Source of the DNA: a bacterium
GTDB taxonomy: Bacteria > Patescibacteriota > Dojkabacteria > SC72 > WJKH01
Direction: 5' to 3'
Length of the DNA stretch: 55,377 nucleotides
Assembly (NCBI GenBank): GCA_029547225.1
Contig: JAKPPS010000039.1
Coordinates: forward strand, 1 to 55,377
The stretch's first letter is position 1. Every line of letters begins with the position of its first letter. The notes beneath the pieces were generated by a model. The model was not told where the DNA came from. It saw only the letters and a list, made by a program, of their open reading frames with translations, and made no database searches. Of the stretch, positions 2-23,000 are shown piece by piece. The position numbers were made by a program, and so were the translations under genes.

Positions 2-2638
2 GGTACAACAGGTAAGCTTGGTACACTCGGCTTTGCAGGTTCAACATCGGGATTGGTAACAGTACAACCTGCCGCAGCAGCAGGTACATGGACGCTGACA
101 TTGCCAACGAGTGCCGGTACAAATGGATATGTATTATCAACGAATGGCTCAGGAGTGACTACTTGGTCGGCAGTAACCTCGTTGGTAGCTGCAGACACTT
201 GGGATTATGATGATTTCGTTGATACAATGTCTCTTGATGCGAACTTGATAACTAATCAAACGACCTATACTTCAACCCACAATTATACTGGTACTACAAC
301 AACTGGATTAACATACAATGCAGATAGTGTTACGACAGCAAATGCAGTTGAGATATCAGCAGATGGATTAACTACTGGTAGTGGAGTACGGCTTTCATCT
401 ACTTCAACAGCTGGTGGAGCAAGTGTTACGAGTAGTGTTTTGTATATTGATAGAAGTGGTACAAATGCTTACAATGCACATATCTCTACTGGCATAAATA
501 TTAAGGTTGCTAATACAGGAACATCGTCAATTAATCGTGGAGTTCAATCAACTGCAAATGGTGGAAGTAATAATTATGCTGGCTATTTTGTTGTAAATGG
601 TACAACGGGTTCAAAAACTGGTTTATTTTCATGGGTTTTAAATGATTCGTCTTCAGTATCATATTCAGGATATTTTGCAAATACAACTACCAATACAACA
701 ACTGATGCATTGGCAAAATATGGTATTTTTGTAAGTTCAACTGGTAATTTTCCTGGCTCGAGTGGTCGTGCAACAACCAATTATGGTTTATATGTAGATA
801 CAGTATCTGGAGCAGATGCAAATTATGCCGCTGTTTTTGCAGGTGGAAATGTAGGTATCGGTACTTCAAGTCCTAGCGCTTTACTTAGTTTGTATGGTCC
901 ATTCAATACAATCCCTAATTTGAACATTGAAAGACGTGATCCAGATATAGCAAATGGAGATGGTTTGGGTGTAATAGAATTCGCTGGCAGTGATGCGACA
1001 GTATTAGATCAAATTGGAGCAAAAATTTATGCGGTCGCAGATAATACTTGGGACGGTGGAACGAATGACGCTCCTACTCGGTTGGAATTTTTTGTCCAGA
1101 GTAATGGTACTACAGATACTCTGACAACTCCAGCCCTCACAATTGATAGTACTGGATATGTAGGTATTGGCACACAAGCTCCTGCAGTAGCTTTAGAAGT
1201 TAGTGGTAATGGTAAGTTTAGTGCAATTGGTTCTGGAACCTATGTTGGAGCAGTTAATCGAACTTCAGATGGTACATTTACCACTGCAACTTCAGATATC
1301 CGTTTTAAAAAAGATGTTGAAACAATTACAGGAGCATTAGATAAAGTAAATCAATTAAGAGGAGTTACATTTAATTGGATAGATCCAAATGAACCAAAGC
1401 GGATGACAGGTATGATCGCACAAGAAGTAATAGATGTAATGCCTGAATTAGTCTATCAAAACCCTACGGATGGATATTATGGATTGTTGTACGGAGAAAC
1501 ATCAGGACTATTGATTGAAGCGATAAAAGAATTAGATGACAAGGTAGATAATCTTGGATTTACTGTAACCGAAATAGATGGAGTAAAAAATCTCAATTTC
1601 GATGGCACTCTAGTTGCAACAAATATCAAAGCACAAAATATCGAAGGCATGGAGATAATATCTGAAAATATATCGACACTTGAAGACACTCAGGTCTCAA
1701 CAGAACAGCAAATAACAGAGATCAATGATCAATCACTAGATTTGCAAACACGACTAAGTAGTGCGGAGATAAGCATTGCAAACAATGTTGCACGACTCGA
1801 CCAACATTCTTTAATACTTGATAGGATAACTGCGATAAATACTCAGATGTATCAATACAATATGGATATACAAGTATTGGGAGATATGTTTATTGATGGA
1901 AGTATAAATGTAAGTAGTGAAGCAATCTTTAGTGGTCAAATACTGTTTAATCAAGATACAGTCGGACAAGCAAGGATATTGACAGGTCACACAGAAGTTT
2001 ATGTTCCGTTTACTCAAGAATATAGGTATCAACCAGTTGTTACCTTAAGTATGCTCGGAAATAACAGTGTAAACAAGTTCTATGTCGACGAAGTAACGAC
2101 TGCAGGTTTCAAAATTAAAATTGATGGTGTTCAAGCAGACAATGTTACACTAAACTGGCATGCCTTTGCATCTCCAAATGCTAGATTGGTTGATAGTACA
2201 GGAGTTGTAGCTGGAATACAAACTTATCGCCCACTTAAGGGATTAGATCAGATATTTGTTGACCCTTTGATAGATGATACTTGTGTCGGTTATGTTGAAA
2301 CACAAAGTTTTAGTGAGACACATGATGGTGTAGATCTAGCAAAATATGAAGGTTGTATCATAAGCTCAGTTGGTGTCGGTCGTGTTATCTTTGCTGGTTA
2401 TGAGGATATTTCAGGTAATATTGTTAGGATAGATCATGGAAATGGTATAGTTACTGCTTATGCACATGGTACTGGTGAGTTCTTTGTAGAAGTTGGAGAT
2501 TATGTAGATGCAGGTGATCCAATCATGATGATGGGTACAACTGGTACTTCTACAGGTATTCATACGCACTTTATGTTAATACAAGATGGCACAGCTATTA
2601 ACCCTAAGGGCATAATACCGTATAATGCAATCTATTAG
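2..2638 (+). CDS. 5'-partial large fibre/adhesin-like protein with peptidase S74 intramolecular chaperone domain and C-terminal M23 peptidase
   Basis: Frame is open from base 2 (no start in window). Thr/Ser/Gly-rich beta repeats and GNVGIGT motifs; S74 signature SDIRFKKDV...LRGVTFNW...GMIAQEV; coiled-coil; M23 zinc motifs HDGVD, YAH, HTH. Confidence 0.85.
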   Translation, partial: GTTGKLGTLGFAGSTSGLVTVQPAAAAGTWTLTLPTSAGTNGYVLSTNGSGVTTWSAVTSLVAADTWDYDDFVDTMSLDANLITNQTTYTSTHNYTGTTTTGLTYNADSVTTANAVEISADGLTTGSGVRLSSTSTAGGASVTSSVLYIDRSGTNAYNAHISTGINIKVANTGTSSINRGVQSTANGGSNNYAGYFVVNGTTGSKTGLFSWVLNDSSSVSYSGYFANTTTNTTTDALAKYGIFVSSTGNFPGSSGRATTNYGLYVDTVSGADANYAAVFAGGNVGIGTSSPSALLSLYGPFNTIPNLNIERRDPDIANGDGLGVIEFAGSDATVLDQIGAKIYAVADNTWDGGTNDAPTRLEFFVQSNGTTDTLTTPALTIDSTGYVGIGTQAPAVALEVSGNGKFSAIGSGTYVGAVNRTSDGTFTTATSDIRFKKDVETITGALDKVNQLRGVTFNWIDPNEPKRMTGMIAQEVIDVMPELVYQNPTDGYYGLLYGETSGLLIEAIKELDDKVDNLGFTVTEIDGVKNLNFDGTLVATNIKAQNIEGMEIISENISTLEDTQVSTEQQITEINDQSLDLQTRLSSAEISIANNVARLDQHSLILDRITAINTQMYQYNMDIQVLGDMFIDGSINVSSEAIFSGQILFNQDTVGQARILTGHTEVYVPFTQEYRYQPVVTLSMLGNNSVNKFYVDEVTTAGFKIKIDGVQADNVTLNWHAFASPNARLVDSTGVVAGIQTYRPLKGLDQIFVDPLIDDTCVGYVETQSFSETHDGVDLAKYEGCIISSVGVGRVIFAGYEDISGNIVRIDHGNGIVTAYAHGTGEFFVEVGDYVDAGDPIMMMGTTGTSTGIHTHFMLIQDGTAINPKGIIPYNAIY

Positions 2639-2660
2639 TTAAATTTTTAAGTTGTTCGTG

Positions 2661-3575
2661 ATGCACGATTTGATTATTGTTGGTGCTGGACCTGCAGGTT
2701 ATACCGGCGCGATTTATTCAGCAAGATATGGTTTAGATACTTTAATTATTGGAGAAATGGTCGGAGGTCTGGCGAGTGAAGCACATAAAATCTGTAATTT
2801 CCCAGGCTCTTTTGAAACTTCAGGTGTCGAACTAATGTTTAAGTTTAAAGACCATGTAAATAAAGTAGGAGCTAAAGAGATCAATGATAGGGTAGAGGAA
2901 ATCACCAAAATGCAAGATGCAGAAGGTAAAGATATTTTTACAGTAAAAACTAATCGCAGTGGTGAATTTACTGCCAGAGCAATATTATTAGCTAACGGGC
3001 TTAAGCGTAGAAAACTTAACCTTCCAAACGAAAATCAATTATACGGTCGCGGATTAAATTACTGCGCCACTTGTGATGGTCCATTGTATCGTGGTAAATC
3101 TGTTACAGTAATTGGTGGTGGTGATGCTGCTACAACTGCAGCTTTATTTCTCTCGGAAATTGCTACAGAGGTACATATGATCGTCTGGGAGTCCGAACTT
3201 CATGGAGAAATGGCTTGGATCAATGCAATACTTAACAACAAAAAAGTAATTCCACATTATAACAGTGGAGTCAAAGAGTTGCTTGGTACAGATAGATTCC
3301 AAGGACTTATTACTACACGAGATGAAAAAGTTGTAACTGATGGTGTTTTTGTTGAGATAGGATTTATTCCGGATGTATCGTTAGCTACTAGCTTAGGGGT
3401 TGAGATAGATGAGAGAGGATATATTATCGTTAATAAGGATTTTTCAACAAATGTTAAAGGAGTTTTCGCCGCAGGCGATGCTACTAATGGTATGAACGAT
3501 TTTAAACAGGTTCTCACTGCTTGTGCTGGTTCAGCTATCGCTGCTCAATCAATTTTCTTGATGATAAAGCAGTAG
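2661..3575 (+). CDS. trxB: Thioredoxin-disulfide reductase family flavoprotein
   Basis: GAGPAG FAD motif, CATCDG redox motif, GGGDAA, TNVKGVFAAGD. ATG at 2661 preferred over TTG at 2652. Confidence 0.88.
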   Translation: MHDLIIVGAGPAGYTGAIYSARYGLDTLIIGEMVGGLASEAHKICNFPGSFETSGVELMFKFKDHVNKVGAKEINDRVEEITKMQDAEGKDIFTVKTNRSGEFTARAILLANGLKRRKLNLPNENQLYGRGLNYCATCDGPLYRGKSVTVIGGGDAATTAALFLSEIATEVHMIVWESELHGEMAWINAILNNKKVIPHYNSGVKELLGTDRFQGLITTRDEKVVTDGVFVEIGFIPDVSLATSLGVEIDERGYIIVNKDFSTNVKGVFAAGDATNGMNDFKQVLTACAGSAIAAQSIFLMIKQ

Positions 3576-3703
3576 TATACCCAGACTTAACGAAAAATCT
3601 ATTGTGATAGTATTTAGTAACCAATCACTTGGATAACTAACAGTATCCAAAAGAGCTTGGATTTGCTGATTTTTTATTTCCACGAAAGCGTGTGAAATTT
3701 ATT

Positions 3704-3957
3704 CTACTTTTTCTCTGATTTTGGTGCGAAAAAGAGAATGTATATCAATGGTAAAAGACCTAATGTATTGAGTATCATAAGTGCGATAAACCAGATTTTA
3801 CTGCCAGCTCTTGCGGATTTCCACAGTGCGATGGCTCTTAGGGTAATATCAAGTATTGTTAAAACTATCATCAATATAAAGGCCAATTATCTGCAAAGCT
3901 TGTTGGGAAAGAAGGGGCTATAGTTGCAATCTTTTCTACAAACAATGTATTATCCAT
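3704..3957 (-). pseudogene. DUF5652-like small membrane protein with an apparent 1-nt frameshift
   Basis: ALWKSARAGSKIWFIALMILNTLGLLPLIY is typical of DUF5652. ATG at 3957 gives MDNTLFVEKIATIAPSFPTSFADNWP, which joins the conserved frame if one T is added at CCTTTATA (~3880). Confidence 0.6.
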
Positions 3958-4110
3958 TTTTTTATGATTTAATTTAATTTCTCTGATTTACTCAATTTAT
4001 TATAATGTTGAAGTTGTAAGAATACAAGATATGCTAAGTATGATAGCCACCAATTAGCTGTTTAAATGGCTAGTATCTGTCTTGATTCTGATTAGATACT
4101 TGAGTAGATC

Positions 4111-5379
4111 TTAATCATTATCGTTCAAATATCTGTTTGCGAGCATGCCACAGGCACCGTTAATATCATTTCCTCTGGATACGCGTATAAAAACATTAAT
4201 CCCGTTTCTTTTCAATAAATCGGCGAACTCATTTATTTCTATCAATCGGTTGCTTAATATCCTTGGGCGATTATTTTTACTTTTGAAATCTTTGCTATCA
4301 CTAATATTTTCAAGATTTTTTTCTGAAATAGCTGAACTTTTATTCTTGTAATTTGTATATCGTATATCATCAATTCTAATACTTTTTGTAATATCCGGAT
4401 CATTTTTACCTCTGTTGTAATTAATTATATTAACAAAGGCTAACTGTCTAAATGGCTTAATCAAGTCAATAAGCTCGTAAGCGTCATTTACACTGTTATT
4501 GATACCATCTAAAAAAATATACTCAAAGCTGATTCGCTTATTCTGGGTAAAGGCGTAATCATGAAAAATATTGATTAATTGATCAAGCCTATTATATCGA
4601 GCAGAGGGGATAATTCTTTCCCTTATGAGCTGATTTGCACTATGTAAACTAAACGCAATTCTAAATTGCCTTTTTTCTTTTAATAACTCTGGTAATAGAT
4701 CGACAATGCCAACAGTTGATAAAGTGATATTTCTAGCTCCAAGTCCGATGAAAGAATTCGATGTGATAATATCAATAGCTTTAAGGACATTATCCAAATT
4801 GAGTAATGGCTCACCCATACCCATAATAACGATATTGGTAACATCGTTGTTAGTAGGTAACTTATATTCACTATTTTTAATAAGATCTGTTTGATCTGGA
4901 GTAGGGTTCTTTAGTATTCTTTTGAAGTACATAATCTGGTCTATTATTTCTTGTACAGAAAGATTCCGAGTAAAACCAAGTCTACCAGTTGCGCAGAATG
5001 CACAGCCCATCGGACAGCCAATTTGAGTGGAAACACACACCGTGTTGCGATCCTTTTCGCTAATTAGCACTGACTCAAATTGATTGCCATCTAGGGTTTT
5101 AAATATTATCTTTATGGTGTTTTTATCACAACTGAACTTTTTTGGCTCGAGTACGCTAAGTAAGATATTCTTTTTGATCTCTTCTCTGAGAGAGTTTGGA
5201 AGTCCAGTTATTTCGTTGAAATCGTTGACACATTGATTGAAAATTGATTGGTTGAATTGTTCAATTCTGTACTTAGGAAGCGACTTTTGCTGTGCAAAGA
5301 TTTCGAAATCAAGTGTACCTAACATTACTTGTGTTTTCGGGCTATTAATATTTGTGTTTACTGTCAAGTCTTTTTGCAT
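4111..5379 (-). CDS. rlmN: 23S rRNA m2A2503/tRNA methyltransferase RlmN (radical SAM)
   Basis: CVSTQIGCPMGCAFCATG (CxxxCxxC), MGMGEPLLN, SLHS, C-terminal GACGML; carries two extra loops. Confidence 0.92.
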   Translation of the reverse strand: MQKDLTVNTNINSPKTQVMLGTLDFEIFAQQKSLPKYRIEQFNQSIFNQCVNDFNEITGLPNSLREEIKKNILLSVLEPKKFSCDKNTIKIIFKTLDGNQFESVLISEKDRNTVCVSTQIGCPMGCAFCATGRLGFTRNLSVQEIIDQIMYFKRILKNPTPDQTDLIKNSEYKLPTNNDVTNIVIMGMGEPLLNLDNVLKAIDIITSNSFIGLGARNITLSTVGIVDLLPELLKEKRQFRIAFSLHSANQLIRERIIPSARYNRLDQLINIFHDYAFTQNKRISFEYIFLDGINNSVNDAYELIDLIKPFRQLAFVNIINYNRGKNDPDITKSIRIDDIRYTNYKNKSSAISEKNLENISDSKDFKSKNNRPRILSNRLIEINEFADLLKRNGINVFIRVSRGNDINGACGMLANRYLNDND

Positions 5380-10100: not shown

Positions 10101-11594
10101 ATGTCTAAGCAAACAAAAAATACGAAAAATTCAAATTCTATTCTTATAGCTACTTTTTTCCTCTTTTTTGCTACAGCGATTATGGGTAGATTATCGGCAT
10201 TTGTCGATTATTATTTTACTTATTGGAATATTGAGGTTAGCGATAGACTGATTAGTAAACTTATTTGGGCAACATTCTATTTACTATTTGTTGTAATTGT
10301 ATTGATAAATGATATTTTTCGTTATTGGCGAGAAATAAACGATGGTAAAGAGTATACAAATGTGAAAAATTCTTTGAGTATCAATACAAAACAAGAGAAT
10401 ATTCAAGGAAAAGTTACCCTTAATAGAAAAAAAGAATTCACTTTCAGAAATAAAATTAATATCCTGATATTAAAAATATGGGAAAGTAAAGTTGCTTTCT
10501 ACAAAGAAAACAAGATAATTGTTTGGGCAAGCCTTGCTATAGTTGTATCATCGCTGTTTAGCGCACTTTTCGCTTATAATAAATCTGAATCTATTTGGGG
10601 ATTACCATATTATGCATTGCTAGTTTCAATACCGTTGATGATCAAATATGTGTGGGGTAATAAACTACAGTTTAAGCTAGTAATTTTCCAAAATATTATA
10701 CTTATTGTACTTGCACTTGTAGCACTGTATCAAAGTCGAATTTACAATTATTTGGGTGCAGAAGTTCATCCAGTAATTAGTTTTTTTGATACTTATGGTG
10801 GATTTATGCCAATTAGCTTCTTTTTGATATGGGATGATTTGATTTATTTGAGGCCAAGCTCTTTAATGGTTGATCCAAATTTTCTAGCAATCTTCTCTGT
10901 TATAGCGTTATCTTATAATGCTGCATTTCTTCCTCGAGTCAGAGAGATTAAAAAACATTTTTGGCGTATTGTTACAACCGTAATTTTGTGTTCATCCATT
11001 TTTTCGGTTGCGTATATAGTAATTGCCTCAGCTTCGCGAACTGCTGTTTTGATGCTGGTAGTAGCGATTTCCACATATTTAACAATAAAAGTAGTAAGTT
11101 ATATCTCAAGTAGATTATCTCTAGTTAGAAAAAAGCCTGCTAAACTCTATTCAAGTGTGATTTGGGTTTATCTGTATAATATCTATCTTCGGATCAAAGA
11201 TGGATTACTTTTGAAGGACGTTTCTTCTTTACAAAGAATAGAATATGCCAAGATTTCTTTACAAGCTTTTAAAGAATATCCGGTTACTGGGATAGGCATA
11301 GGATCGTATGGAGATTACTATCGTAATGTTTTTGATAGCAGTGCGGGTGTTGCAACCCCTCATAATGCATACATGAGAACATTGGCAGAGATGGGTTTTC
11401 TAGGTGTCGCAGCCTTTCTTTTTTATTTTGTTGCATTTGTAAAAGTAATCTTAGATAACCGAAAATATATTTATTTAGCAACATTATTTGGGATTGTGGC
11501 AGGTTCTATCTTCTATGATTTTATTATGACTCCCTGGATGTGGATTTATTTTGGTATAATATACGCTGATGCTACTAATAAAAAAACCGAATAA
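10101..11594 (+). CDS. O-antigen ligase/Wzy_C-like polytopic membrane protein
   Basis: Many TM segments; RPSS..DPNF, SASRTA, YPVTGIGIGSY, PHNAYMRTLAEMG motifs. Confidence 0.8.
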   Translation: MSKQTKNTKNSNSILIATFFLFFATAIMGRLSAFVDYYFTYWNIEVSDRLISKLIWATFYLLFVVIVLINDIFRYWREINDGKEYTNVKNSLSINTKQENIQGKVTLNRKKEFTFRNKINILILKIWESKVAFYKENKIIVWASLAIVVSSLFSALFAYNKSESIWGLPYYALLVSIPLMIKYVWGNKLQFKLVIFQNIILIVLALVALYQSRIYNYLGAEVHPVISFFDTYGGFMPISFFLIWDDLIYLRPSSLMVDPNFLAIFSVIALSYNAAFLPRVREIKKHFWRIVTTVILCSSIFSVAYIVIASASRTAVLMLVVAISTYLTIKVVSYISSRLSLVRKKPAKLYSSVIWVYLYNIYLRIKDGLLLKDVSSLQRIEYAKISLQAFKEYPVTGIGIGSYGDYYRNVFDSSAGVATPHNAYMRTLAEMGFLGVAAFLFYFVAFVKVILDNRKYIYLATLFGIVAGSIFYDFIMTPWMWIYFGIIYADATNKKTE

Positions 11595-11607
11595 AAATTC
11601 AAAAATA

Positions 11608-12738
11608 ATGAATCTTGCACAAGTTGATGAGATTTTGTTGCAAATAAGGCTTCCTTTGAGCCTTGTTTTGACACCTATCAATCTTGAAGTTGAGCGAAAA
11701 AAGTTTTTCGATTCAGATAGTTATGAACCACATTTCAAATATCGAGTTGTCAAGAACAAGAATTTACAGATATTTGAAAGTCTGAGTGAACTTGAGGAGA
11801 TTGATGATGTCGATCCTAGGATTTCCGATATGTATCTGAAATTAATAAGGCAGAAATCGGAAACTAACGATTTGATGAATAATGTCGGCAATAACGAAAA
11901 GTTTACGCAGATAGCTATTAAGAAATTTGGTATGCCAAGTGCAAAATTATTTCGAAATGCTTGCCGAGTTTTAAAAGGAAGAACTTCAATTTACAATGTA
12001 AAAAGTGATACGCGAATGCAGGATACCTCAAGCTTGAATTATTCAGAAATATCATCGATTGTTGATGAATTCTTTAGGTATGCAGGCTTAGAAGGCTGGA
12101 AATCGGGTATCTCTGCAAATATCGCTAGCAATGGTGTAAAAGCTGGTGTCAAAACAAAAGTTTTGCTTATGGATAAAGATATTATGAAAAAGCCTTTTGA
12201 CTTAAGAAAAACTATTGTCCATGAGATCGGCACTCATGTTCTTCGTGCAGAGAACGGCTTGAAATCAGGTTATGGAGTTTTTTCAAGAGCTAATCTTAAT
12301 TCGTATTTAGATACTGAGGAAGGGCTTGCACTTTACAATGAGGAACTTTTTGGCGTATTAACCCTTGAGTCTTTGCGTAAACGAGCTTTATTTGTTTACC
12401 TTATAGGGGTAGGGCAGAATTGTACTTTTAGAGAGCTTTACAATATTTCTTTAGGATTCTTGAAGCCAAAAGATGCTTTTAATACGGTATTGAGAGTCAA
12501 GCGAGGGATTGGTGATGGTTCCCAAGCTGGTATCTATCCAAAGGATATTGTGTATTTCAGAGGATTTAGAAGAGTTAGGAAGGCTATAGATCGCTCTCCA
12601 ACTATTTATAAATCTCTCTATGCGGGGAAAATCAGTCTCAAACAAGTAGAGTGGGTAGAGGAAGGTTTGTTGCCAAAAGCTAAGATATTTCCGGATAAAG
12701 AAGAGTATTCAAGATTATTCAAGAAATTGGGGATTTAA
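11608..12738 (+). CDS. DUF1704 / MATCAP-like zinc metallocarboxypeptidase
   Basis: HEIGTH (HExxxH) followed by TEEGLA, RVKRG and KDIVYFRG, LYAGKIS. ATG at 11608 avoids overlap with the upstream gene. Confidence 0.82.
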   Translation: MNLAQVDEILLQIRLPLSLVLTPINLEVERKKFFDSDSYEPHFKYRVVKNKNLQIFESLSELEEIDDVDPRISDMYLKLIRQKSETNDLMNNVGNNEKFTQIAIKKFGMPSAKLFRNACRVLKGRTSIYNVKSDTRMQDTSSLNYSEISSIVDEFFRYAGLEGWKSGISANIASNGVKAGVKTKVLLMDKDIMKKPFDLRKTIVHEIGTHVLRAENGLKSGYGVFSRANLNSYLDTEEGLALYNEELFGVLTLESLRKRALFVYLIGVGQNCTFRELYNISLGFLKPKDAFNTVLRVKRGIGDGSQAGIYPKDIVYFRGFRRVRKAIDRSPTIYKSLYAGKISLKQVEWVEEGLLPKAKIFPDKEEYSRLFKKLGI

Positions 12739-12830
12739 TCATTCGAAAATCTGTTCGCAAAATTGGATCAGCAGAACCTAAAAATTTCGAAAATGCTTAT
12801 TCACATGCGTGCGGAATTAGTCTACAAGTG

Positions 12831-12880
12831 CAATCTAGTACAACCTAGTGCAATCTAGTGCAATCTAGTGCAACCTTGTG
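12831..12880. repeat. 10-bp tandem repeat (consensus CAATCTAGTG, 5 copies)
   Basis: caatctagta caacctagtg caatctagtg caatctagtg caaccttgtg, between convergent genes. Confidence 0.9.
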
Positions 12881-12948
12881 TAATCGATTCTTGCACAAAG
12901 AATCAATCTAATAATAATGGAACTCCAGAAAGTAAAAGATTGCTAGCT

Positions 12949-13947
12949 CTAAATGAATGATAAAATCATCTCTTTTGCAATATTGATTATTTCGTAACCA
13001 TCTTTAGGCTCAATCTTTTTTTCATAAGCTTTAAATCCAGGATTCATGTTTACTTCGAGGACATAAGGCTTATCATCTTTGTAGATAACATCGATAGCCA
13101 TAAAGTCACTTTTGAAAGCTGTACCACATTTCTTAGCTAATTCGATAAGTCTATCCTCTGGGTTTGTAAGAAGCGAATATTCACCTTTATCAACGGTAAT
13201 AAATGATCGAGTTGCTTTACGGATCCAACCTGATATCAATTTATCTCCATTTACGAACAATCTCAGATCTTCACCTATGTCAGTAAACTCTTGCAAAAAG
13301 AAATCCTTCAACTCTTTTTTGTTAAGGTTTTCTTGAGCAAAGTCCTCAACCTTATTTATCATGTAAATATTCTTTTTTACAGTTGCATCAGAAGGTTCTA
13401 AATTTGACTCAGAAGTATTTGTATCAGAAATATTCGTTTTTGGTCTTAAGTCATTCTCACCTGAGACGTGTTTTGCAAGTACAGTTTTATTGTTAAAAAT
13501 TGATTGATAATCATCATAATTTCCATCAGCTCTATAAAATGAGTGTAGATAGGGGATATCATTCTGAGAAAAAATCAAAGCTTGTGTCAATTTTGAATAA
13601 TTGTGCATTATTTTAATAAAATCAGAGTTCTGTATTTTAATCTGTTTCTCTGGATTTTTTTTGTTGAAATTTTCTATATGTTCAACTATTAGTCGTTTTA
13701 TTTCATATTCTTCTCGGCTAAAATGTCCACGCATGATAATGTGAGTATAACTTGTAATATCTTCATTACGCACAAAAATACTGTAATTCCCGTCCTTTTG
13801 GTCAATCGATATTTCGTGGTTGTAAACATAATCGGAGGTGTGACCGAGCTTTGTAATCTCCTCTTGGAGTCTCTCTATGGCATATGGTGTCTTGTTTGAG
13901 TCACCAATCCTGGGTTGCTTATCTATAATGAGGAATTTATAGTTCAT
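12949..13947 (-). CDS. Divergent RimK/LysX-like ATP-grasp amino-acid ligase
   Basis: YAIERLQEE..KLGH N-domain, FLQEF..GEDLRLFV, MAIDV...YVLEVNMNPGF. Confidence 0.78.
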   Translation of the reverse strand: MNYKFLIIDKQPRIGDSNKTPYAIERLQEEITKLGHTSDYVYNHEISIDQKDGNYSIFVRNEDITSYTHIIMRGHFSREEYEIKRLIVEHIENFNKKNPEKQIKIQNSDFIKIMHNYSKLTQALIFSQNDIPYLHSFYRADGNYDDYQSIFNNKTVLAKHVSGENDLRPKTNISDTNTSESNLEPSDATVKKNIYMINKVEDFAQENLNKKELKDFFLQEFTDIGEDLRLFVNGDKLISGWIRKATRSFITVDKGEYSLLTNPEDRLIELAKKCGTAFKSDFMAIDVIYKDDKPYVLEVNMNPGFKAYEKKIEPKDGYEIINIAKEMILSFI

Positions 13948-14235
13948 ATATTTGGTATTAAAATTATATGATTATTTGGGTAAATTGTACCATACTTCCA
14001 CAGTAAATTCATTCTAAAATGAATATCACGATTATTGACCAAAAGTAGGGTAATAAAGTGTAAAAAAATATGCCTCAAAGTTGAGAATAGAAATAAAGAA
14101 AATTTGTAGGATTTATGCATAAAATCGTAGCGCAAATTATAGGTCGTTGCATATATTTCGTTACTTTGATATTCTTTACTAAGTAGTTCCTCTGCTACTG
14201 CCCTCAGAGGAACGTTAATTTATTATTATAATAGT

Positions 14236-15006
14236 ATGCAAGCACAAAATGACATGAATCCTGTTGAGAGAATAAGACAGGAGACGCAGGTTAATACCTA
14301 CGCAAAAACTAATTCTAAGGGCAAGGGAGATGGCCATGGTGGATTAGTTATAGCTGGTTTCTCAGCAACACTATTAATTGGATTAATAGTAGTGTTACTA
14401 GTTGGGGCAGGTGTTGTAGGTTATCTTTTTTATCAAGAAAAACAAAAACCAGATAACTCAGTAGAACTAGCAGATTATGAAGTACAACAAATGAAAGAGA
14501 AGATTGGCAAACTAATACTCTTACCATCCGATCAAGAGCCAACTGTTGCTACCATCGTTGATATCGAAAAACTAAAAGAAACAAACCCAACTTTTTATAA
14601 GAACGCTTCAAACGGAGATAAAATCTTAGTATATTCTGATAAAGCAATATTATATGATCCAGATAATAACATCATCTTAGATGTAGCTCCGATTGTTACA
14701 GATCCTGCTTCTCAATCAGCATCCTTAAGTGTTGAATTGAGAGATGCTTCTGACGCAAAAGACCTTGATCAGATAAGTGCTGAAATTGCAAATTATGGTT
14801 CACAGTTTGTTGTAGCAACCAAGTCAGAGTCTGCGGATGCAAGCGACAATGGTGTTGAAATATTTATAGTAACTACCGATGAAACAAAAATGCAGATGGC
14901 AAGTGCTTTAGCAACATCAATGGGTGCTCAGATAGTTGAATCGATGCCACAAGGAGAACAAGCACCAGCAGATGGTGTTGATGTAGTCATTGTTTATGGT
15001 GATTAA
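14236..15006 (+). CDS. Single-pass membrane protein with LytR C-terminal-like domain
   Basis: One TM helix; EPTVATIVD...FYKNA.NGDKILVY motif common in CPR proteins; ends DVVIVYGD as in LytR_C. Confidence 0.6.
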   Translation: MQAQNDMNPVERIRQETQVNTYAKTNSKGKGDGHGGLVIAGFSATLLIGLIVVLLVGAGVVGYLFYQEKQKPDNSVELADYEVQQMKEKIGKLILLPSDQEPTVATIVDIEKLKETNPTFYKNASNGDKILVYSDKAILYDPDNNIILDVAPIVTDPASQSASLSVELRDASDAKDLDQISAEIANYGSQFVVATKSESADASDNGVEIFIVTTDETKMQMASALATSMGAQIVESMPQGEQAPADGVDVVIVYGD

Positions 15007-15030
15007 TCAATTATTTCTTTGAGATATTAT

Positions 15031-15057
15031 CTCCCTCTGAAAAGAGGGAGTTTTTTT
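15031..15057 (+). terminator. Intrinsic terminator
   Basis: CTCCCTCT-GAAA-AGAGGGAG followed by T7. Confidence 0.88.
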
Positions 15058-15102
15058 ATCATTTATTAGACGAAAAAGTATTATTTGCTTCTAATATTTT
15101 TG

Positions 15103-15154
15103 GTATGCCACCAACCTTTGTACAATACACGAGACTTTTATCCATGACTACCCA
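15103..15154 (-). repeat. Dispersed two-box repeat, copy 1
   Basis: Minus strand TGGGTAGTCATGG-N25-GGTTGGTGGCATAC; both boxes are identical at 31674-31724 (+). Confidence 0.8.
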
Positions 15155-15313
15155 AGCATTTTGCTAAGCGCGATCTTGTGTACACCATGATGAAATAAAA
15201 TAAATAGTTTGTTAAAGGTAGTTGAAAGTATTATTAAAGGTGTGCAAGAGTTAATTCTATGCAAAACACGAGGATTGTAATGGTGACGGTTACTTGCTCT
15301 GTAAAACGGTTGG

Positions 15314-17125
15314 TTACAATTTTATTATCTCTTTGATTAATCTTTGGTCTATAGCTTGAGCAATGCCGTTATATCTCGTGAGATCAAATGAAGTAATTAG
15401 CGTATCAATCCTATCAAATCCTGTGCCATGTAGAGCGACTTGTTCCGGATTATCAAAGCAATGGCAAATAATATCGAGATTCCTATTCCTTTTAAGTGCA
15501 AGTATTGCATTTCGATATTGTAAATTACCATTTATCAAGTGCCCGTTATTGTATATTGTTTCGTTGTGATAGGTTCCGATATTCAGTTTCTCATTATGTA
15601 TTAATTCAGTAAGTTTCGTATCTGTAAGATATTTCTCAAGTTCTTTGAGTGGGTCGGCGGAGATTATAACTATCTTTTTACATTTATTATTTTGTACGAT
15701 TAATCCATCTACAAATTCTTTGATCGCTTCTGGACGATTTTTTCCTTCGGATGGAAAAATATTTAAATACATTTCAGGCATCATGTTTACCTCAAGAATC
15801 GTCCCATTTTCGAGTGTTAATGGGGCAGAGATATCTTTACATAGTATATCTATCCCGACGCAATAAGCATGCATGGATTTAGCTATTGAAACACAAATAT
15901 CTTTGATCTGAGGATGTACAATATCGGTAACATCTTTTGTCATACCACCTTGACTCATACTTGCAGTTTTGCGAACATAAATCCTTTGACCTTTTGTTGG
16001 AATATCAACGTATGATAAGTCTTGCTCTTTGAGGAATATCTCAAGCATCTCATTTTTTTCGATCGGCTTGAGTGTATGAGTTGGATTAAGTTTATCTCTG
16101 TTTGGATCTCTATTAATTTCATCTATGAGTTGTTCAATATTACTTGTGCCATCGCCGATAACATAAGCAGGTATTCTTTTAGTTGCGGCAACATATTTTC
16201 CATTGATTATCAAAATTCGATAATCTTCTCCGCTAACTTGTTCTTGGATAATAATCTTTGTTTGCCAAACGGCTCTTATTTTCTTATGTATTGCTTCATA
16301 AGCCATTTGTATCGCTTTATAAGCCTGTTCTTTTGAAATAATATTTGTCGTTACTCCAGCACCACCGGTAAGTCCGTTTGGTTTTATTACAAAGGGTTTT
16401 TTATAATTGTCGAAAATACGATCAACCTCAAGTTTGCAATCATCAATCTCTTCTCCAAGTAAGTGCCAAGGAGCGTTTGGTAGTCCGAGATTATCAAAAA
16501 ATGTATTTGAAGGTATTTTATCTCTTTGTATTTTTTGTGCGATATGACTATCAAAAGATGAAGATGCGGCACAGTTGATAGAACTTTCACATGCGATTCC
16601 AAGCAAATAATACTTATTTATTGACGAAATCCCTTCGCCAGATCTTTGATTAACGAAAAACTGATTTATTTCGTAACCTTGGTCGATTGTTTCAGTAAGG
16701 ATTGGAATTGTACTCATCGATTCAATCTGTTTCTTAATAATGTCGGAATGGATTTTATTATTGGTTTCTTCAAAACTAAGTTTTGCATCTAGATACTCAT
16801 ATACAACATTAAAAATCTCTGACCAGAGATTGGGTAGGTGAGAGTAAACAATAAATTTGTGGATATCAATAGTTGCTTTTTCTTCGCCATTGTGGGTAAT
16901 TTTATCTTTCAATCCACTAATAGAGACATTTTCACCTTTTCGAAATGTGTGTAGCAGTTTATCGTATTTGCTGTAGTATTCAATCCTGTCGCCAAATAAT
17001 CGGTGGTAATTAATGATTATATTTAATAGCTCAATTATCTTTTCATCAACAATATAGCTCGATTTGAAAGAAATCGAAGTCAACATGCTATCTAAGTTTA
17101 TTCCTTGAATTATTTTTATCTCCAT
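15314..17125 (-). CDS. Cyanophycin synthetase-like ATP-grasp protein (N+G domains, degenerate short C-domain; CphA2-like architecture)
   Basis: VIKPNGLTGGAGVT, GEDYRILII...RIPAYVIGDGTSNIEQLI, TASMSQGG..DVTDIVHP, LEVNMMP; no GTNGKT Mur-ligase P-loop. Confidence 0.78.
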   Translation of the reverse strand: MEIKIIQGINLDSMLTSISFKSSYIVDEKIIELLNIIINYHRLFGDRIEYYSKYDKLLHTFRKGENVSISGLKDKITHNGEEKATIDIHKFIVYSHLPNLWSEIFNVVYEYLDAKLSFEETNNKIHSDIIKKQIESMSTIPILTETIDQGYEINQFFVNQRSGEGISSINKYYLLGIACESSINCAASSSFDSHIAQKIQRDKIPSNTFFDNLGLPNAPWHLLGEEIDDCKLEVDRIFDNYKKPFVIKPNGLTGGAGVTTNIISKEQAYKAIQMAYEAIHKKIRAVWQTKIIIQEQVSGEDYRILIINGKYVAATKRIPAYVIGDGTSNIEQLIDEINRDPNRDKLNPTHTLKPIEKNEMLEIFLKEQDLSYVDIPTKGQRIYVRKTASMSQGGMTKDVTDIVHPQIKDICVSIAKSMHAYCVGIDILCKDISAPLTLENGTILEVNMMPEMYLNIFPSEGKNRPEAIKEFVDGLIVQNNKCKKIVIISADPLKELEKYLTDTKLTELIHNEKLNIGTYHNETIYNNGHLINGNLQYRNAILALKRNRNLDIICHCFDNPEQVALHGTGFDRIDTLITSFDLTRYNGIAQAIDQRLIKEIIKL

Positions 17126-17171
17126 TTTGCTATATTGAGTTAACTTAATACAAATTATTTTTGTGTATTGC

Positions 17172-18416
17172 TTATATACCTCTGAGTTCTAAAGCATCTG
17201 CAACTTTCTTTACTGAGAGAGCATAAGTGCCCATGCGCATATCAGTGCCTAGACTCTTTGTCGATTGATGTGCTTCGTTAAATGCTTTTACCATCAATCC
17301 TTGAAGTTGTTTTTCAACCTCTTCTTTTGACCAGTAATAACCTTGACGATTTTGTACCCATTCAAAATAGGATACTGTTACGCCTCCTGAGTTCGCCAAT
17401 ACATCTGGAACCGATAAGATACCTTTATCTGCCAATATGTAATCAGCTTCTGGTGTTACAGGCCCATTAGCCATCTCAATTATATATTTTGCGTTGATGC
17501 TGTCGGCATTATCTTTTGTTATGACATTTTCTATTGCGGCTGGCACTAATACGCTCACAGGCAATTCTAACAATGACTTATTATCAACCTCTTTTTCTTT
17601 TGCAAATTCAGTAATTATCTTTTTATCCTCGTAAATGTGCTTTATCAATTTGTTGACATCAATACCTTTTCTATCATAGATACCTCCATTGATATCGCTA
17701 ATTGCCACAATCTTGAAACCTTTTTCATAAGCTAACCTTGCGAAGTGAGAGCCAACATTTCCAAAACCTTGTACAGCAATTTCAGTATCTTTAGGTGATA
17801 AACCTTGGAGCTTTGATAATTCGTTGAGGATAAAAACACCACCAAGCCCAGTTGCTTCAGTTCTACCTTGAGAGCCGCCTAATTCGATCGGCTTAGCAGT
17901 GATAGTCGCTGGTTGCCAAGAGCCTTTGATTTTGCTGTATTCGTCAATCATCCAGGCCATAATCTGTGAATTTGTATTCATGTCTGGAGCGGGTACATCA
18001 ATATCGGGTCCGATCAAGTCTGCAACAGCTCTTATATATCCTCGAGATAATCTTTCTATTTCACCAATTGATAATTTTGTTGGGTCGACTGTGATACCAC
18101 CTTTTGCACCACCGTAAGGGATACCAGTTACAGCGCATTTCCAAGTCATCCATACTGATAATGCTTTAACTTCATTTAGGTCAACTTGGGGTGCGTATCT
18201 GAGTCCTCCTTTGTATGGTCCTCTTGCGTTACAGTGTTGTGCTCGATATCCAGTAAATACTTTAGTAGTGCCATCGTCCATCACAACTGGGATGTTTACT
18301 TCTAAAACTCTATCATGTTTTGATAGTCTAGCTACTGTGCTTTCCTTTAATTTTATTATCTTTGCAACTTTCTCAAGCTGTTCGATAGCATTTTGGTATG
18401 CATTATTTTTTTCCAT
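17172..18416 (-). CDS. gdhA: Glutamate dehydrogenase (Glu/Leu/Phe/Val dehydrogenase family)
   Basis: GPYKGGLRY, MTWKCA, GGAKGG, DVPAPD, QGFGNVG, NSGGVTVSYFEWVQN. Confidence 0.93.
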   Translation of the reverse strand: MEKNNAYQNAIEQLEKVAKIIKLKESTVARLSKHDRVLEVNIPVVMDDGTTKVFTGYRAQHCNARGPYKGGLRYAPQVDLNEVKALSVWMTWKCAVTGIPYGGAKGGITVDPTKLSIGEIERLSRGYIRAVADLIGPDIDVPAPDMNTNSQIMAWMIDEYSKIKGSWQPATITAKPIELGGSQGRTEATGLGGVFILNELSKLQGLSPKDTEIAVQGFGNVGSHFARLAYEKGFKIVAISDINGGIYDRKGIDVNKLIKHIYEDKKIITEFAKEKEVDNKSLLELPVSVLVPAAIENVITKDNADSINAKYIIEMANGPVTPEADYILADKGILSVPDVLANSGGVTVSYFEWVQNRQGYYWSKEEVEKQLQGLMVKAFNEAHQSTKSLGTDMRMGTYALSVKKVADALELRGI

Positions 18417-18524
18417 AATATTTAGATAAAAATTTAGATACTATTTATACATTGTAAATACTGCAAAATATTACACCTTGTTATTTATTGTTACAATATT
18501 GAAATAGAAATTAATCGAAAAAGC

Positions 18525-19706
18525 TTATATATCGTGATCTCTTATGTATTCCATGATTGGTATTGCAACTTTTATAATATTACCAGCATCTGGCTTGTAG
18601 TGAAGTCTTAATCCAGGATTGTAATTTATTTCGTTAATGGCACATTCTGTTGGTTTGGTTATATCTGGAGTAATCAGATCAACGCCACCATATTTCAAAC
18701 CGATTGCTTTTACTGCTTTGATAGCAAGATCGATGTAGTACGGGTGTGTGATATCTGCACATTCTTCTGTTGTACCACCGGTAGTGAGATTTGCATTGTA
18801 TCTCAAAAATATTTTTTTGTCTTTATCGATTACGGATTGCAGATTGTATCTGAGAGTTAGTAATTTACTTATTGTTTCAACATCTATGGGTATTGGTAAT
18901 AATAATCTCTCACTTCTTAAAATATTCTTTGCATCTATAAGTTGTTGTATTGTGCTTGTGCCATCTCCAATAACATATGCTGGGACTCGGTGTACTATTG
19001 CAATAACTCGATTATCAAGTACCAATAATCGATAATTCTCACCTTGGATAAACTGCTCAACCAAAACTTCTGTTGGTACTTTTGCGTGATTATTATCAAC
19101 AGCAAACTGATAAGCCTCCTGAACATCTTGCAAAGCAGGTTTCGAGGATAGAATTTCGGGTGAGATTGTAATGTTTTCTGAAGTGATACTCCCCCCTAGT
19201 ATCTTACCGTTACCTTTGATACTCCCGGGGAGTATACTTTGGGACTGTTCTTCAATCTGATTAGTAAGAGTCGAGGACACAGTAAGATCAGCAGGTTTTT
19301 CGAGCACTTTCCTTAAGCCGGGTAGGATAGAAACTCCGTGTCCGCCTAATGCTTGTAATGGCTTGATGACAATATTTTTAAGCATTAGATATTTTTCGAT
19401 TGCCTCTTGCGGATTTGAAACTACGAACTGTTTTGGTACTGGGATATCGAATTTTGATAAAACTTTGTTTGTAAGGCTTTTTCTCTTTGCAATAGTACTA
19501 CTCGGTGTGTTGACTAAGGGGGTTACAGTATTTGCAATGTACCAATGTTTATTATTATATATAAATTTTGCGAGTAATCCTTTCTCAATAATTTCATATT
19601 CGATATTTAATTGATCGGCTGCTTCTACAAAATATGATAGGTGGATATTTCCAGCAATCTTAAGGTAGTTATTTTGTAAAGTGCTTTTTTGTCGTTTTTT
19701 ATCCAT
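18525..19706 (-). CDS. Stand-alone CphA/GshAB-type ATP-grasp ligase
   Basis: VIKPLQALGGHGV, EQFIQGENYRLLV...RVPAYVIGDG, NANLTTGG, GVDLITPDI, INEINYNPGLRLH; ~60-aa insert after the Gly loop. Confidence 0.8.
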   Translation of the reverse strand: MDKKRQKSTLQNNYLKIAGNIHLSYFVEAADQLNIEYEIIEKGLLAKFIYNNKHWYIANTVTPLVNTPSSTIAKRKSLTNKVLSKFDIPVPKQFVVSNPQEAIEKYLMLKNIVIKPLQALGGHGVSILPGLRKVLEKPADLTVSSTLTNQIEEQSQSILPGSIKGNGKILGGSITSENITISPEILSSKPALQDVQEAYQFAVDNNHAKVPTEVLVEQFIQGENYRLLVLDNRVIAIVHRVPAYVIGDGTSTIQQLIDAKNILRSERLLLPIPIDVETISKLLTLRYNLQSVIDKDKKIFLRYNANLTTGGTTEECADITHPYYIDLAIKAVKAIGLKYGGVDLITPDITKPTECAINEINYNPGLRLHYKPDAGNIIKVAIPIMEYIRDHDI

Positions 19707-20036: not shown

Positions 20037-23000
20037 TTGAGTACTACAAAAAACACTTTTTCTTTTATTAACTTGATCAGGTTCATATTGATCTTGGGGC
20101 TTTTTGTTACAGTTTTTTATGCAACTTTTGATAGGCAGATAGCACGCACTTTTGGTACTCATACGATGCCAGAGTATGATGGTAAATTTCCGCTGAATAG
20201 CAATTATGCCTTTAGTCATGTTATTGATATTGGTGCGAATCTGGATAGTGTAACTATTGCTGACCAGTTTCATGATAATGTTGATTGCGTTTATTATACA
20301 GATTTTTATGTATTTGATCTCGCAGGTTCGCTTATTACTTCTTGGTCTGATGATACGCTTGGTCGTATAGGCGGTATGGATATGACTGAAGATGGTAGAG
20401 TGGTGCTTGTGGATGAGAGTAATTTAATTATCGTGACTTATGATAGTGATGGTTCAAACCGTTCAGACAGGGGACTTAATTTACCAAGCCAAGCGTCTAG
20501 TTTTGTGATTGAGGGTTTGACTCTTTCTCAAGGTGGAGATGTGTATGTCGGAGTTGAATATACAGATGACACAGAATACAACAAAATATATAAATACTCT
20601 CGCAACGGCGAATTTGTTACAAGTTGGGGAGAAAGAGGTACGGGTCTTGGTCAATTTTCTGACATAATAGCTTTAAATCTTGATTCAGATGGGTATATTT
20701 ATGTGTTAGATGAAGCAGGTAAAGTCGCAAAATTTACTCCTGATGGAACTTTTGTCTATGAGTTTAATCATGGGATCGTTCCCAATCCTGGTGAATCAAT
20801 CGTTGATATTGCTATTGATAATACTGACACAATAATGGTTTCTTATCAACAGTATGTCTATTTGTATGATCAGACAGGTGGATATATCGATCGAAGAGAT
20901 ATTAGTACTGAGGCGTATTGGGGAGAGGCAGTTAGTTGGTTGAGAATAGATGTTAATAGTGATGGAGAAATATTGATAGGTGACGATGGTAATCAGGGTA
21001 TATATTATTATGATGATTCTTTCGCATTACTTGATAGATTTTTGTCAAAAATATCTTGGGAGGGTGGCATAATACCATCTTATACTGGTGATGGTGATAT
21101 GGTAATTGACGTTAATGGAAACCTTTTCTTTACGAATAATCTAGATAAAACAACGGTTTACAATAGTGAGGGGATATTGATAGATGCTCTCGAAATTTAT
21201 GCTGAAGGTGGTATGGATTTTGATAACCAAGGTAATTTATATTATGTTGATAGTGGTAATTTTATTAGGCAGTACGATAGCAATAGAAATCCTATAAGTA
21301 CTTGGGGCAACCAAGGTTTAGGCAATGATATTGAGTACGCAGAAAAAATCGCAATCAGTCCAGATGGATATATATATCTTACTGATCCTCGGGGTTGTTA
21401 CTACAAAGTTGATAATAGTCATAATGTTATATTCAAGAGGTGTAACAGTGAGATTGATGGTCAACCTAATTTACACACATATATAACAGATTTGGTTTTT
21501 GATAGCCAAGGTAACTATTATATAATTTTTAATGAGAATGATTTAAGTCATGTTAGTGCTTTTACATCAGAGGATGTTTTTATTGAAAGTTGGGGGAGTG
21601 AGGGCACTGCAGATGATCAATTTAATTATGTCTCCTCAATGACTATTGATCATAATGATGATTTATGGGTTGCTGATACAGGAGCAGATTGTATCAAAAG
21701 GTTTACAACGGATGGTGAATATACAGGTAAGATTTGCGATTATGATGGAAACCCATTTGAAACTGTAGCATATATTATGTATCAAGATGGAGTTATATAT
21801 GTTGCAGATGCTTCAACTCGAGAGATAGTTATGTTTTCATTTGATACTTTGCCACCAGAAATTGATATTGTAGCGCCTACGAAAAATAAGACTGCTACGA
21901 TAACAGATACGACAATTGAGATTTATGATAATCGCGGTTTGTTATCCGAAGATATTGTTGTTGATAATGCTTCAACAGCAGATTATACAAATCTTAGTTG
22001 TCAGCAAGTAGATCCTAATAATGTAAGCTGTACAATAAATATTACCTCTAGCGGTAACTTGATTATTAATGCAATCGATATTGAGGGAAATCTTGCCACT
22101 TTAAGTGAAAATGGCTATGTTGTAGATTTGCCACCAGTACCTGTGATACTTACAAGTGTTGATGGTGTAACTGGTTTTGCCGATAATGATACTCTGACAT
22201 TTAGTTTAGAAAATCGTAGTCCTGTCATTGTGGGAGTATCAGATCCTGATACAACAATTTTCTTTTTAGCTGGTACAAATCGTTATCAAGCAACTCCTGA
22301 TGCTGGGGGAAATTTCACCTTGACTTTACAAAATCCACGCTTACCTCAAGGTTCTTCTGTGTCATTGTTATATTGGGCAAGAGATGGTAGTCGATCCTTA
22401 TCTACGGTAAAAACGCTAAATATTACTGTTACGGCACCTGATGTGGACACTGCTGAGACTCAACCGATTTATCAATATCTATATCTTCCAAAAGGAGCTC
22501 AGCGTCCTTCTGGCACAACACCAATTGTTGAACTTCCTACTGTTGTACCATATGAACAGGTCGAACTACCAACGATAGTAACAGAGGAAGAAACCATCCC
22601 AATACCAACAAGACGTCTTCCAAATACACAAGTTGAGAATATCGGTACTAGTTGGATAACATCAGAACAAGCTCAGGAGATAGCGATGTGGAGTGCTGGC
22701 GGAGCAGTTGTAGCATTTACTGTTGCAATGATATTAGGAGAATCGAATCCTGTTGCATATGTATTTAGATTTATTACTTACGCTTTTGGTTGGTTGAAGG
22801 TCAAGAAAAAGCATAATTCGTTTATTGTCGTTTATGATGCTGTTACAAAGGAGCCAATCTCGTTGGCGATAATAAGGTTTATTAAGTCAGGTGGTGGTCT
22901 TGTAGATACTCAGGTTACAAATGAATATGGGGTTGTGGATGTTGCATTGCCAGACGGAGAATACAATCTTGTTGTTGCCGCTCGAGATTACAAATATCCA

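Follow-up and report, generated by a model that had tools for sequence, protein, structure and literature searches.

The chaperone and autoprotease domain Peptidase_S74 (S74 below) is carried C-terminally by classes of phage tail fibres (10.1101/2024.10.28.620165), and a cellular use of the same domain is described in Bdellovibrio bacteriovorus, where 13 of the 21 mosaic adhesive trimeric (MAT) fibres end in S74 with an SDxxxK motif (PMC10769870). The motif of Bd3182 self-cleaves at S782, and the substitution S782A blocks cleavage (PMC10769870); here and below, statements on published systems follow the consulted portions of the cited sources. The gene studied here lies at the start of contig JAKPPS010000039.1 (assembly GCA_029547225.1), of which the whole stretch of 55,377 nucleotides was analysed (the window). 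It encodes a fibre protein in which S74 is internal and followed by a predicted helix, a beta-sandwich domain and an M23 zinc peptidase. We find it best explained as a chromosomally encoded, Sec-exported trimeric fibre on the surface of a bacterium of Dojkabacteria type from wastewater sludge, and consider it reasonably probable that autocleavage turns the protein into an adhesive fibre and a trimeric, lectin-like–M23 hydrolase acting on the wall of another cell.

Processing of the Tal proteins of lactococcal phages uses a glycine-rich site and not S74. As proposed for the present fibre, Tal2009 (Tuc2009) and the Tal of TP901-1 are trimeric fibres that shed a C-terminal M23 domain by proteolysis (PMC6115969, PMC9662197), and an M23-shedding fibre with a different cleavage site is thus already known from lactococcal phages (PMC6115969); the Tal proteins are, however, parts of the virion baseplate and have neither a lectin-like domain nor a coiled coil between cut and enzyme. 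In the tail endopeptidases of enterococcal phages that have architecture DA5, a wall-degrading domain and an endosialidase-chaperone S74 are united in one fibre protein, but there S74 is cleaved off and the lysin stays on the fibre (PMC10194240), whereas the enzyme described here stands after S74 and would leave with it. The eukaryotic membrane-tethered transcription factors MYRF and MrfA show that internal S74 cleavage can separate two functional parts of a trimeric precursor (PMC3828593), although there the functional part set free comes from the N-terminus, and the C-terminus serves as membrane anchor rather than as an enzyme. With phage S74 fibres (K1F endosialidase, the L-shaped fibre of T5/DT57C, S16 gp37) the protein shares an S74 match above the cut-off, the S-D-x-x-x-K pattern, GIGT..P...L before S74 and a predicted trimer; in those fibres S74 ends the protein, whereas here about 350 residues and three more domains follow, in a cellular gene with a signal peptide.

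The likeness to the MAT fibres is one of an analogous plan. Both are chromosomal and about 1,000 aa long and combine a signal peptide with a conserved N-terminal domain, a mosaic tip and a long fibre, which in the MAT proteins is trimeric and in the window protein is predicted to be so (PMC10769870), and the MAT-like plan is seen here in an N-terminal domain shared with fibres of 18 of 60 relatives and in the exchange of cassettes. The MAT fibres end in S74 or an adhesive tip, with no enzyme after S74 (PMC10769870), whereas the window fibre has one, in a Patescibacterium. Compared with the LysM-M23 proteins (NMB0315/ShyA/MepM) and with lysostaphin and LytM, the fold with H-x3-D, catalytic His and H-x-H is common, but an H-type-lectin-like domain on a coiled coil replaces LysM or SH3b and the enzyme forms the end of a longer fibre precursor. 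Its placement after S74, unlike that in phage S74 fibres, MAT fibres and Tal, would turn the "discarded" fragment into the effector. Among the best matches in the open literature searched, we found no description of S74 followed by M23, of S74 with an H-type lectin or of S74 in Patescibacteria, with subscription papers and the MAT supplementary tables, which list fibre tip domains in other bacteria, lying outside the search; "M23" is absent from the main text of the MAT paper (PMC10769870), and the consulted text of a review of M23 enzymes (PMC9662197) has no occurrence of S74, chaperone, trimer or lectin. Nor do the portions of the tail-fibre, M23 and MAT literature examined mention functional-looking domains after S74.

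The open reading frame occupies positions 2..2638 of the forward strand, is open at its 5′ end, which is the contig start, and has 878 codons and a stop. Its parts are listed below, with aa counted in the window protein; P0003 is a relative of 1116 aa that serves as full-length reference, C39 another contig of the same genome bin and X12 a sequencing run.

2..1291, forward strand: fibre shaft and tip, aa 1-430, rich in Thr, Gly and Ser (sequence and PHROGs tail-fibre matches)
416..736, forward strand: variable shaft cassette, aa 139-245 (43-73% identity to P0003; C39 and X12 also diverge)
845-865 and 1157-1174, forward strand: two GxVGIGTxxPxxxL motifs in the shaft (motif positions)
1172..1531, forward strand: swapped "tip + S74" cassette, aa 391-510 (alignment of the window protein, P0001, with P0003, read in windows of 30 residues)
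1292..1555, forward strand: Peptidase_S74 chaperone and autoprotease fold, aa 431-518 (Pfam, motif alignment and model)
1556..1648, forward strand: linker, aa 519-549 (low confidence in the monomer model, inter-chain contacts in the trimer model)
1649..1855, forward strand: single long helix, aa 550-618 (part of a three-stranded coiled coil in the trimer model)
1958..2167, forward strand: beta-sandwich domain, aa 653-722 (its model resembles H-type lectins and tailspike or pyocin-fibre tips)
2273..2635, forward strand: M23 (LytM-type) zinc peptidase, aa 758-878, at the extreme C-terminus (Pfam and PDB matches)

Both catalytic domains exceed their Pfam cut-offs, Peptidase_S74 (PF13884) at aa 431-485 with E 2.6e-18 and 66.5 bits (cut-off 22) and Peptidase_M23 (PF01551) at aa 773-868 with E 1.4e-21 and 76.9 bits (cut-off 28.7). 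From nt 1292 the translation opens with SDIRFKK and runs for 448 residues to the stop; an earlier note on this DNA had read a non-terminal S74 motif (SDIRFKK, Ser at 1292) at this place, and its coordinates and motifs are correct. The predicted dyad consists of the nucleophile Ser431 (nt 1292-1294) and the base Lys436 (nt 1307-1309) within SDIRFK, and the S-D-x-x-x-K pattern aligns with those of the DT57C/T5-type L-shaped fibre 8hqz_d and of S16 gp37 6f45. M23 peptidases bind zinc through H-x3-D and the second His of H-x-H and have two catalytic His, as known from work on LytM and lysostaphin. The window protein has H774 and D778 (HDGVD, nt 2321-2335), H822 (AYAHG) and H854 and H856 (HTH, nt 2561-2569), and all five metal-binding and catalytic residues align with His or Asp of the solved enzymes 9gy1, 3slu and 6muk, which bears out the same note's view that the site is intact. 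In total, 34 PDB sequences match the domain at E <= 0.01, 9gy1_A best (E 1.7e-12). PHROGs tail-fibre and long-tail-fibre profiles match aa 36-526; the phage tail-fibre S74 matches finish at the profile end (e.g. 1562/1567, 565/576, 992/1000), which falls at aa 516-530 of the 878 aa, and about 350 residues are therefore extra with respect to the canonical S74 end.

The genome bin that holds the window (as contig C45, 1-55377) comprises 1.01 Mb in 59 contigs and is rated 84% complete and 1.6% contaminated. We estimate the full fibre gene at about 1,110 codons, which would put some 233 codons of its 5′ part beyond the contig start. A second version of the first ~590 codons was found at the 3′ end of C39 (G000:C39:74801-76577; L005:18224-19999), where a 592-codon open frame has 64% amino acid identity to aa 1-347 of the window protein and matches no Pfam family. 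Its N-terminus, with a Lys-rich start, a hydrophobic stretch and ...VEA|S, looks like a signal peptide by eye, as does that of P0003, and 200 of the first 233 residues are identical between the two. The first 75 nt of C45 equal C39:75499-75573 exactly, the last 28 nt of C39 equal C45:1016-1043 exactly, and the sequence between both overlaps is diverged; such a pattern arises where paths of an assembly graph branch and rejoin. No other contig carries a copy. The simplest reading is one locus with two shaft alleles, or two paralogues sharing (collapsed) ends, and under either the predicted full protein is of about 1,110 aa with a signal peptide.

The earlier note had named an assembly chimera as a possible refutation, and the junctions were checked in Logan contigs from four runs that are filed under as many other study codes and stem from activated sludge, wastewater or a bioreactor. 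Contigs of these runs, X2, X3, X6 and X12, cross every domain junction. The X2 contig covers nt 1060-2516 with 0 differences, though X2 may not be independent since it shares year and habitat with the probable source run; the X3 contig covers nt 1328-2478 with 9 differences, the X6 contigs nt 979-1734 and 1718-2214 (together 979-2214) and the X12 contigs nt 836-1485 and 1487-2626. An exhaustive HMMER search of 1.84 billion representatives gave P0003 with 84% identity, E 1e-232 and the same domain order. The identity is unevenly spread, being 97-100% over aa 541-750 and most of the shaft and 27-33% over aa 391-510, which cover the fibre tip and the whole of S74. Low identity between near-identical flanks indicates that the S74 cassette has been exchanged between genes. 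The replacement cassette of P0003 retains the dyad as SDISLK, and that both exchanged cassettes keep S-D-x-x-x-K rules out a chimera and argues for selection on the dyad.

The shaft has a cassette of its own: in an X12 contig, nt 416-736 (319 nt) are replaced by 364 other letters, and P0003 and C39 also diverge most there. Judged from these sequences, this could be a receptor-binding or antigenically variable part. The X3 contigs have loose ends within the S74 region (nt 1403 and 1454), perhaps other S74 alleles or other genes. In X12, the contig covering the gene departs from the window at nt 2626 and runs on into unlike sequence, while a second contig begins to match at nt 2665, so that the 3′ neighbour there is not the gene resembling thioredoxin reductase (trxB-like) found in the window, or an insertion is present. 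RNA runs contained a fraction of only 0.07-0.17 of the sampled words.

An AlphaFold2 monomer model of the 448 residues from Ser431 (42-row alignment, mean pLDDT 83) arranges them, counted from Ser431, as S74 (1-88), linker (89-119), helix (120-188), beta sandwich (223-292) and M23 (328-448), in agreement with the coiled coil and beta domain that had been noted after S74. The trimer prediction that the earlier note proposed was run with three copies of post-cut residues 1-320 and reached a score of 0.82, with the best of 3 controls at 0.00, the mark being one that 20 of 30 solved homo-pairs and 1 of 23 proteins solved as single chains reach. At least 94% of the contacts were common to the runs and partner pLDDT was at least 86; the contacts span S74, linker, helix and beta domain, with those of helix 123-175 at a spacing of 3-4 residues. 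The model supports, but does not show, a trimeric post-cut fragment.

Modelled alone (AlphaFold2, aa 620-755, pLDDT 80.5), the beta domain was matched best by Foldseek to 3wmp (SLL-2), 7eea (Pam1 tailspike tip), 4q56 (HAA) and 2ccv (HPA), with E 2e-3 to 7e-3 (best 1.9e-3). With VIA-align, the top 13 rows were all tailspike or pyocin-fibre tips or H-type lectins: the tailspike tips 7eea (Z 9.3) and 4ru4 (Z 9.1) outscored the lectins discoidin I 2w94 (Z 8.4, rmsd 2.5, 77 aligned), HPA 2ccv (Z 8.0, rmsd 2.0, 73 aligned) and SLL-2 3wmp (Z 7.6), and 6cl6 reached Z 8.6. Pfam H_lectin (PF09458) matches aa 667-722 with E 0.18 and 12.4 bits, under its cut-off of 24; among 15 relatives scanned, five match at E 2e-4 to 9e-3, all likewise under the cut-off. 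Since Z values of 7-8 are common, we call the domain only "H-type-lectin-like" and leave family membership open.

The combination of S74 and M23 is rare, and each part is common. Among the 150 best representatives, 86 match M23 only, 37 S74 and the beta domain, 24 S74 only and one the beta domain only; one has the beta domain and M23 without S74 (P0004), and a single one, P0003, has all three. A protein with S74 and M23 of typical similarity would far exceed the list cut-off of 86 bits, and the fusion is therefore very rare in the library. In the genome searches (61 genomes of the order and 221 of the class), a match spanning S74 to M23 was found only in the window's own genome (G000). Searches for loci related to the post-cut protein confirmed 0 of 96 pattern matches in genome contigs and 0 of 2 in viral contigs (IMG/VR), metagenome contigs gave one weak S74-only locus out of 67, and the ESM Atlas gave no usable match. 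A position of S74 away from the C-terminus, which the earlier note pointed out, is on the other hand not unusual: in 48 of 62 scorable related S74 domains, more than 150 residues follow, and the 37 representatives above combine S74 with the beta domain. All 62 keep Ser and Lys; the sample has a bias, as proteins that share the later domains are over-represented in it.

P0004, a protein of 602 aa, starts with a signal peptide, which is followed by a low-complexity region and the coiled coil–beta–M23 unit, without fibre or S74. Over post-cut query residues 119-445 it shows 39% identity, and the IDPL..C.GY linker is common to both proteins; as it exists on its own, the sequences suggest that what follows S74 is able to function when secreted by itself, in keeping with a fragment that is active after release. 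The nearest M23 domains within the class are the C-terminal ones of ~380-aa LysM-M23 proteins from another order (47-53% identity, E 1e-35 to 1e-41), and the genome's own 470-aa LysM-M23 (C39:30226) is much further from the fibre M23 (E 6e-15). Elsewhere in the bin, an open frame of 1,169 aa contains a weak match to M23 (G000:C44:62790-63143, E 1.4e-4).

The fibre appears from its sequence to belong to a local family with a signal peptide, a conserved N-terminal domain, a long fibre and S74. In the 18 relatives mentioned, giant open frames of up to 5,358 aa begin with a match to the N-terminal 233 residues, and in G017, G026, G054 and G055 the frames with this domain also hold S74. The fibre of G026 (L112:6727-12093) has 1,788 aa with S74 at aa 1141-1196 and ~590 residues after it, and that of G054 (L113:1757-6814) has S74 at aa 1237-1288 of 1,685 with ~400 residues after it. 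The tails after S74 in the two genomes match no Pfam family and share a ~200-residue end-piece with the motif ...SRWNDIYTKGTIRLGSG... In G026 (C1:408000-423000, L112), the gene order is rho, LysM-M23 (450 aa), leuS, fibre and a ConA-like lectin protein of 929 aa; in G054, frames of matching lengths follow one another in the same way. In 13 of these 18 relatives, the strand of the fibre also carries a LysM-M23 gene 3-8 kb upstream of it; a functional coupling of the two genes was considered and dropped, the arrangement being read as a chromosomal order that related genomes have conserved. An internal S74 followed by varied modules at the C-terminus would thus be a theme of these bacteria, with the M23 version as one rare member.

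We propose the following course of events. S74 would help three chains fold into the fibre, as it does in phage tailspikes and Bdellovibrio MAT fibres, and would then cut each chain just before Ser431 by means of the Ser431/Lys436 dyad. One product would be the mature fibre with a newly exposed tip. As ~350 residues lie beyond the S74 fold, the cut would yield a second product, a trimer of 448 residues per chain comprising S74, the coiled coil, the H-type-lectin-like domain and M23. The released fragment would be a glycan-targeted peptidoglycan endopeptidase, working most probably on the wall of a host, prey or competitor contacted by the fibre. We infer competence for cleavage because the dyad is conserved and, by analogy, because S782A abolishes the processing of Bd3182. 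For the hydrolase role, it counts that the LysM partner of the nearest M23 proteins is a peptidoglycan-binding domain. On the whole, the observation in the earlier note is confirmed and its interpretation, maturation of the fibre with release of a wall-lytic fragment, is partly supported.

Several points weigh against this proposal. In phages, the S74 fragment is a discarded chaperone, so that a function for it has to be newly assumed. The fusion was not found in 2 other genomes of the family, 60 relatives in the order and 220 other genomes of the class, and, known from two sequences (the window and P0003), it may be a recent, little-tested construct. The 5′ end of the gene and its true upstream neighbour are unassembled, and the link to C39 consists of the exact overlaps of 75 and 28 nt. 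The score of 0.82 comes from a job with three copies and a custom alignment, unlike the pair-based calibration, and may reflect memory of solved S74 and H-type lectin trimers. For the beta domain, no Foldseek match reached E <= 0.001, and Z values of 8-9.3 barely exceed the common level (typical best Z 7-8). To our knowledge, no host of Dojkabacteria has been described, and we infer an episymbiont lifestyle from the phylum only.

An unlikely alternative is that the fibre is processed partly or not at all and works, like a tail lysin, as a full-length trimer with a distal lectin and M23 that digests the wall while attached to its producer. Tal2009 and the Tal of TP901-1 offer a precedent, with a C-terminal M23 on a trimeric fibre that is processed in only a part of the particles, so that two functional forms exist (PMC6115969), and the trimer model presents S74, helix and beta domain as one continuous rod. 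Retention of the dyad in all 62 relatives and in both exchanged cassettes, however, argues for selection on catalysis, and cleavage is complete in the S74 systems consulted, as judged from the two bands of Bd3182 (PMC10769870) and from a cryo-EM map of a phage fibre without S74 density (10.1101/2024.10.28.620165).

The cleaved lectin-M23 fragment could also serve its producer by remodelling or opening the cell's own wall, for instance for the passage of fibre or pili or for the separation of daughter cells, which we regard as rather unlikely. M23 enzymes are often autolysins (PMC9662197), and most of those in these genomes are housekeeping-like LysM-M23 proteins, which at ~450-470 aa occur in 59 of 61 genomes searched. 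The genome, however, already encodes the LysM-M23 noted above on C39 as well as another two M23 frames, the fused copy is accessory and was not found in the 220 other genomes of the class, and a lectin-like tip, typical of receptor-binding proteins, stands in the place of LysM.

The same protein could belong to a phage, tailocin or contractile-injection system in an unassembled prophage, with M23 as a virion-associated lysin. PHROGs profiles of tail fibre (E 1e-27) and endolysin or peptidase (E 1e-19) do match, and the true 5′ flank is unassembled. Its most probable substitute, judged through the contig overlaps, is the last 20 kb of C39, which hold the end of argS, a serine integrase, a DnaD/RepO-like gene, an S51 peptidase, MFS transporters, a beta-lactamase-fold protein, a 729-aa surface protein, a sortase, tmk, an ABC ATPase and uvrA. 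The integrase is a large serine recombinase (L005:1100-3574; G000:C39:57677-60151; phrog_95 integrase, E 2e-83) beside the DnaD/RepO-like gene, 15-17 kb upstream of the C39 fibre gene, and it may be the remnant or edge of an integrated element; the two genes are a point in favour of a prophage. Between integrase and fibre, however, lie the MFS transporters, sortase, tmk, ABC transporter and uvrA, and no capsid, portal, terminase, tail tube, sheath or baseplate gene was detected among 27 flanking proteins by Pfam or 16 by PHROGs, the only structural phage match among the 16 being the fibre itself, with a weak lysin-type match on the beta-lactamase-fold protein. The gene that follows the fibre is:

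2652..3575, forward strand: trxB-like flavoprotein (Pyr_redox_2, E 1.3e-42), starting 13 nt after the fibre stop

No terminator-like site was found between the two genes, and a scan of nt 2300-4200 was uninformative, with 8 promoter-like sites (7.9 expected from shuffles) and 2 terminator-like sites (1.0 expected). Further downstream, the window has a radical-SAM gene, a PEGA protein, trpS and mreB. The trxB-like gene, trpS and mreB speak against a prophage, as do the Sec-signal-like N-terminus and the orthologous fibres of G026 and G054 in the order given above. Of 540 phage records matching part of the query, none covers 80%; a tblastn search of 50,697 phage records with the beta domain gave no match, an absence at the sequence level only; and IMG/VR has no close relative. 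We thus consider a prophage origin very improbable, and the earlier note's description of the fibre as chromosomal and not prophage-borne agrees with the probable upstream 20 kb and the downstream window. That the fibre with S74 and the M23 domain come from different genes joined in assembly has a negligible chance: the contig does start inside the gene at an assembly branch point, but the junction-crossing contigs and the domain order of P0003 refute a chimera unless all assemblies share one error.

The window has further features of its own. The genes closest to its MreB are 68-77% identical and come from metagenome-assembled genomes titled Candidatus Dojkabacteria or auto-labelled Saccharibacteria. 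At 11569-19706, a MATCAP-like gene (tyrosine carboxypeptidase family), three RimK/ATP-grasp-like genes and a glutamate dehydrogenase form an unusual peptide-ligase and peptidase neighbourhood for a reduced genome. Two adjacent giant frames (1185 and 1206 aa) at 20037-27211, with NHL/beta-propeller-like and CarboxypepD_reg domains, probably encode further surface proteins.

S74 followed by functional-looking domains is common in sequence space: after it we see a lectin-like domain (in the 37 of the 150 best matches), a lectin-like domain with M23 (here) and, in G054 and G026, other Pfam-free domains of 450-650 aa. A tentative generalisation, possible though doubtful at present, is that Patescibacteria and other uncultured lineages have turned S74 from a throw-away chaperone into a release peptidase, with an exchangeable module after it, so that one precursor gives an adhesive fibre and a free trimeric effector. 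If this is true, the M23 version would be the first candidate for an enzyme by which an ultrasmall epibiont opens the wall of its host at the point of fibre contact. Should the released trimer be active, S74 would interest protein engineering and enzybiotics as a natural module of the "fold, then release" kind; should it be inactive, the locus would still be a clear case of mosaic exchange of fibre cassettes in a reduced genome. One protein here combines a receptor-type fibre, a predicted self-processing switch and a wall-cutting enzyme with a sugar-binding-like targeting domain, and its gene is an expressible candidate for explaining how ultrasmall Patescibacteria fasten onto other cells and obtain material from them.

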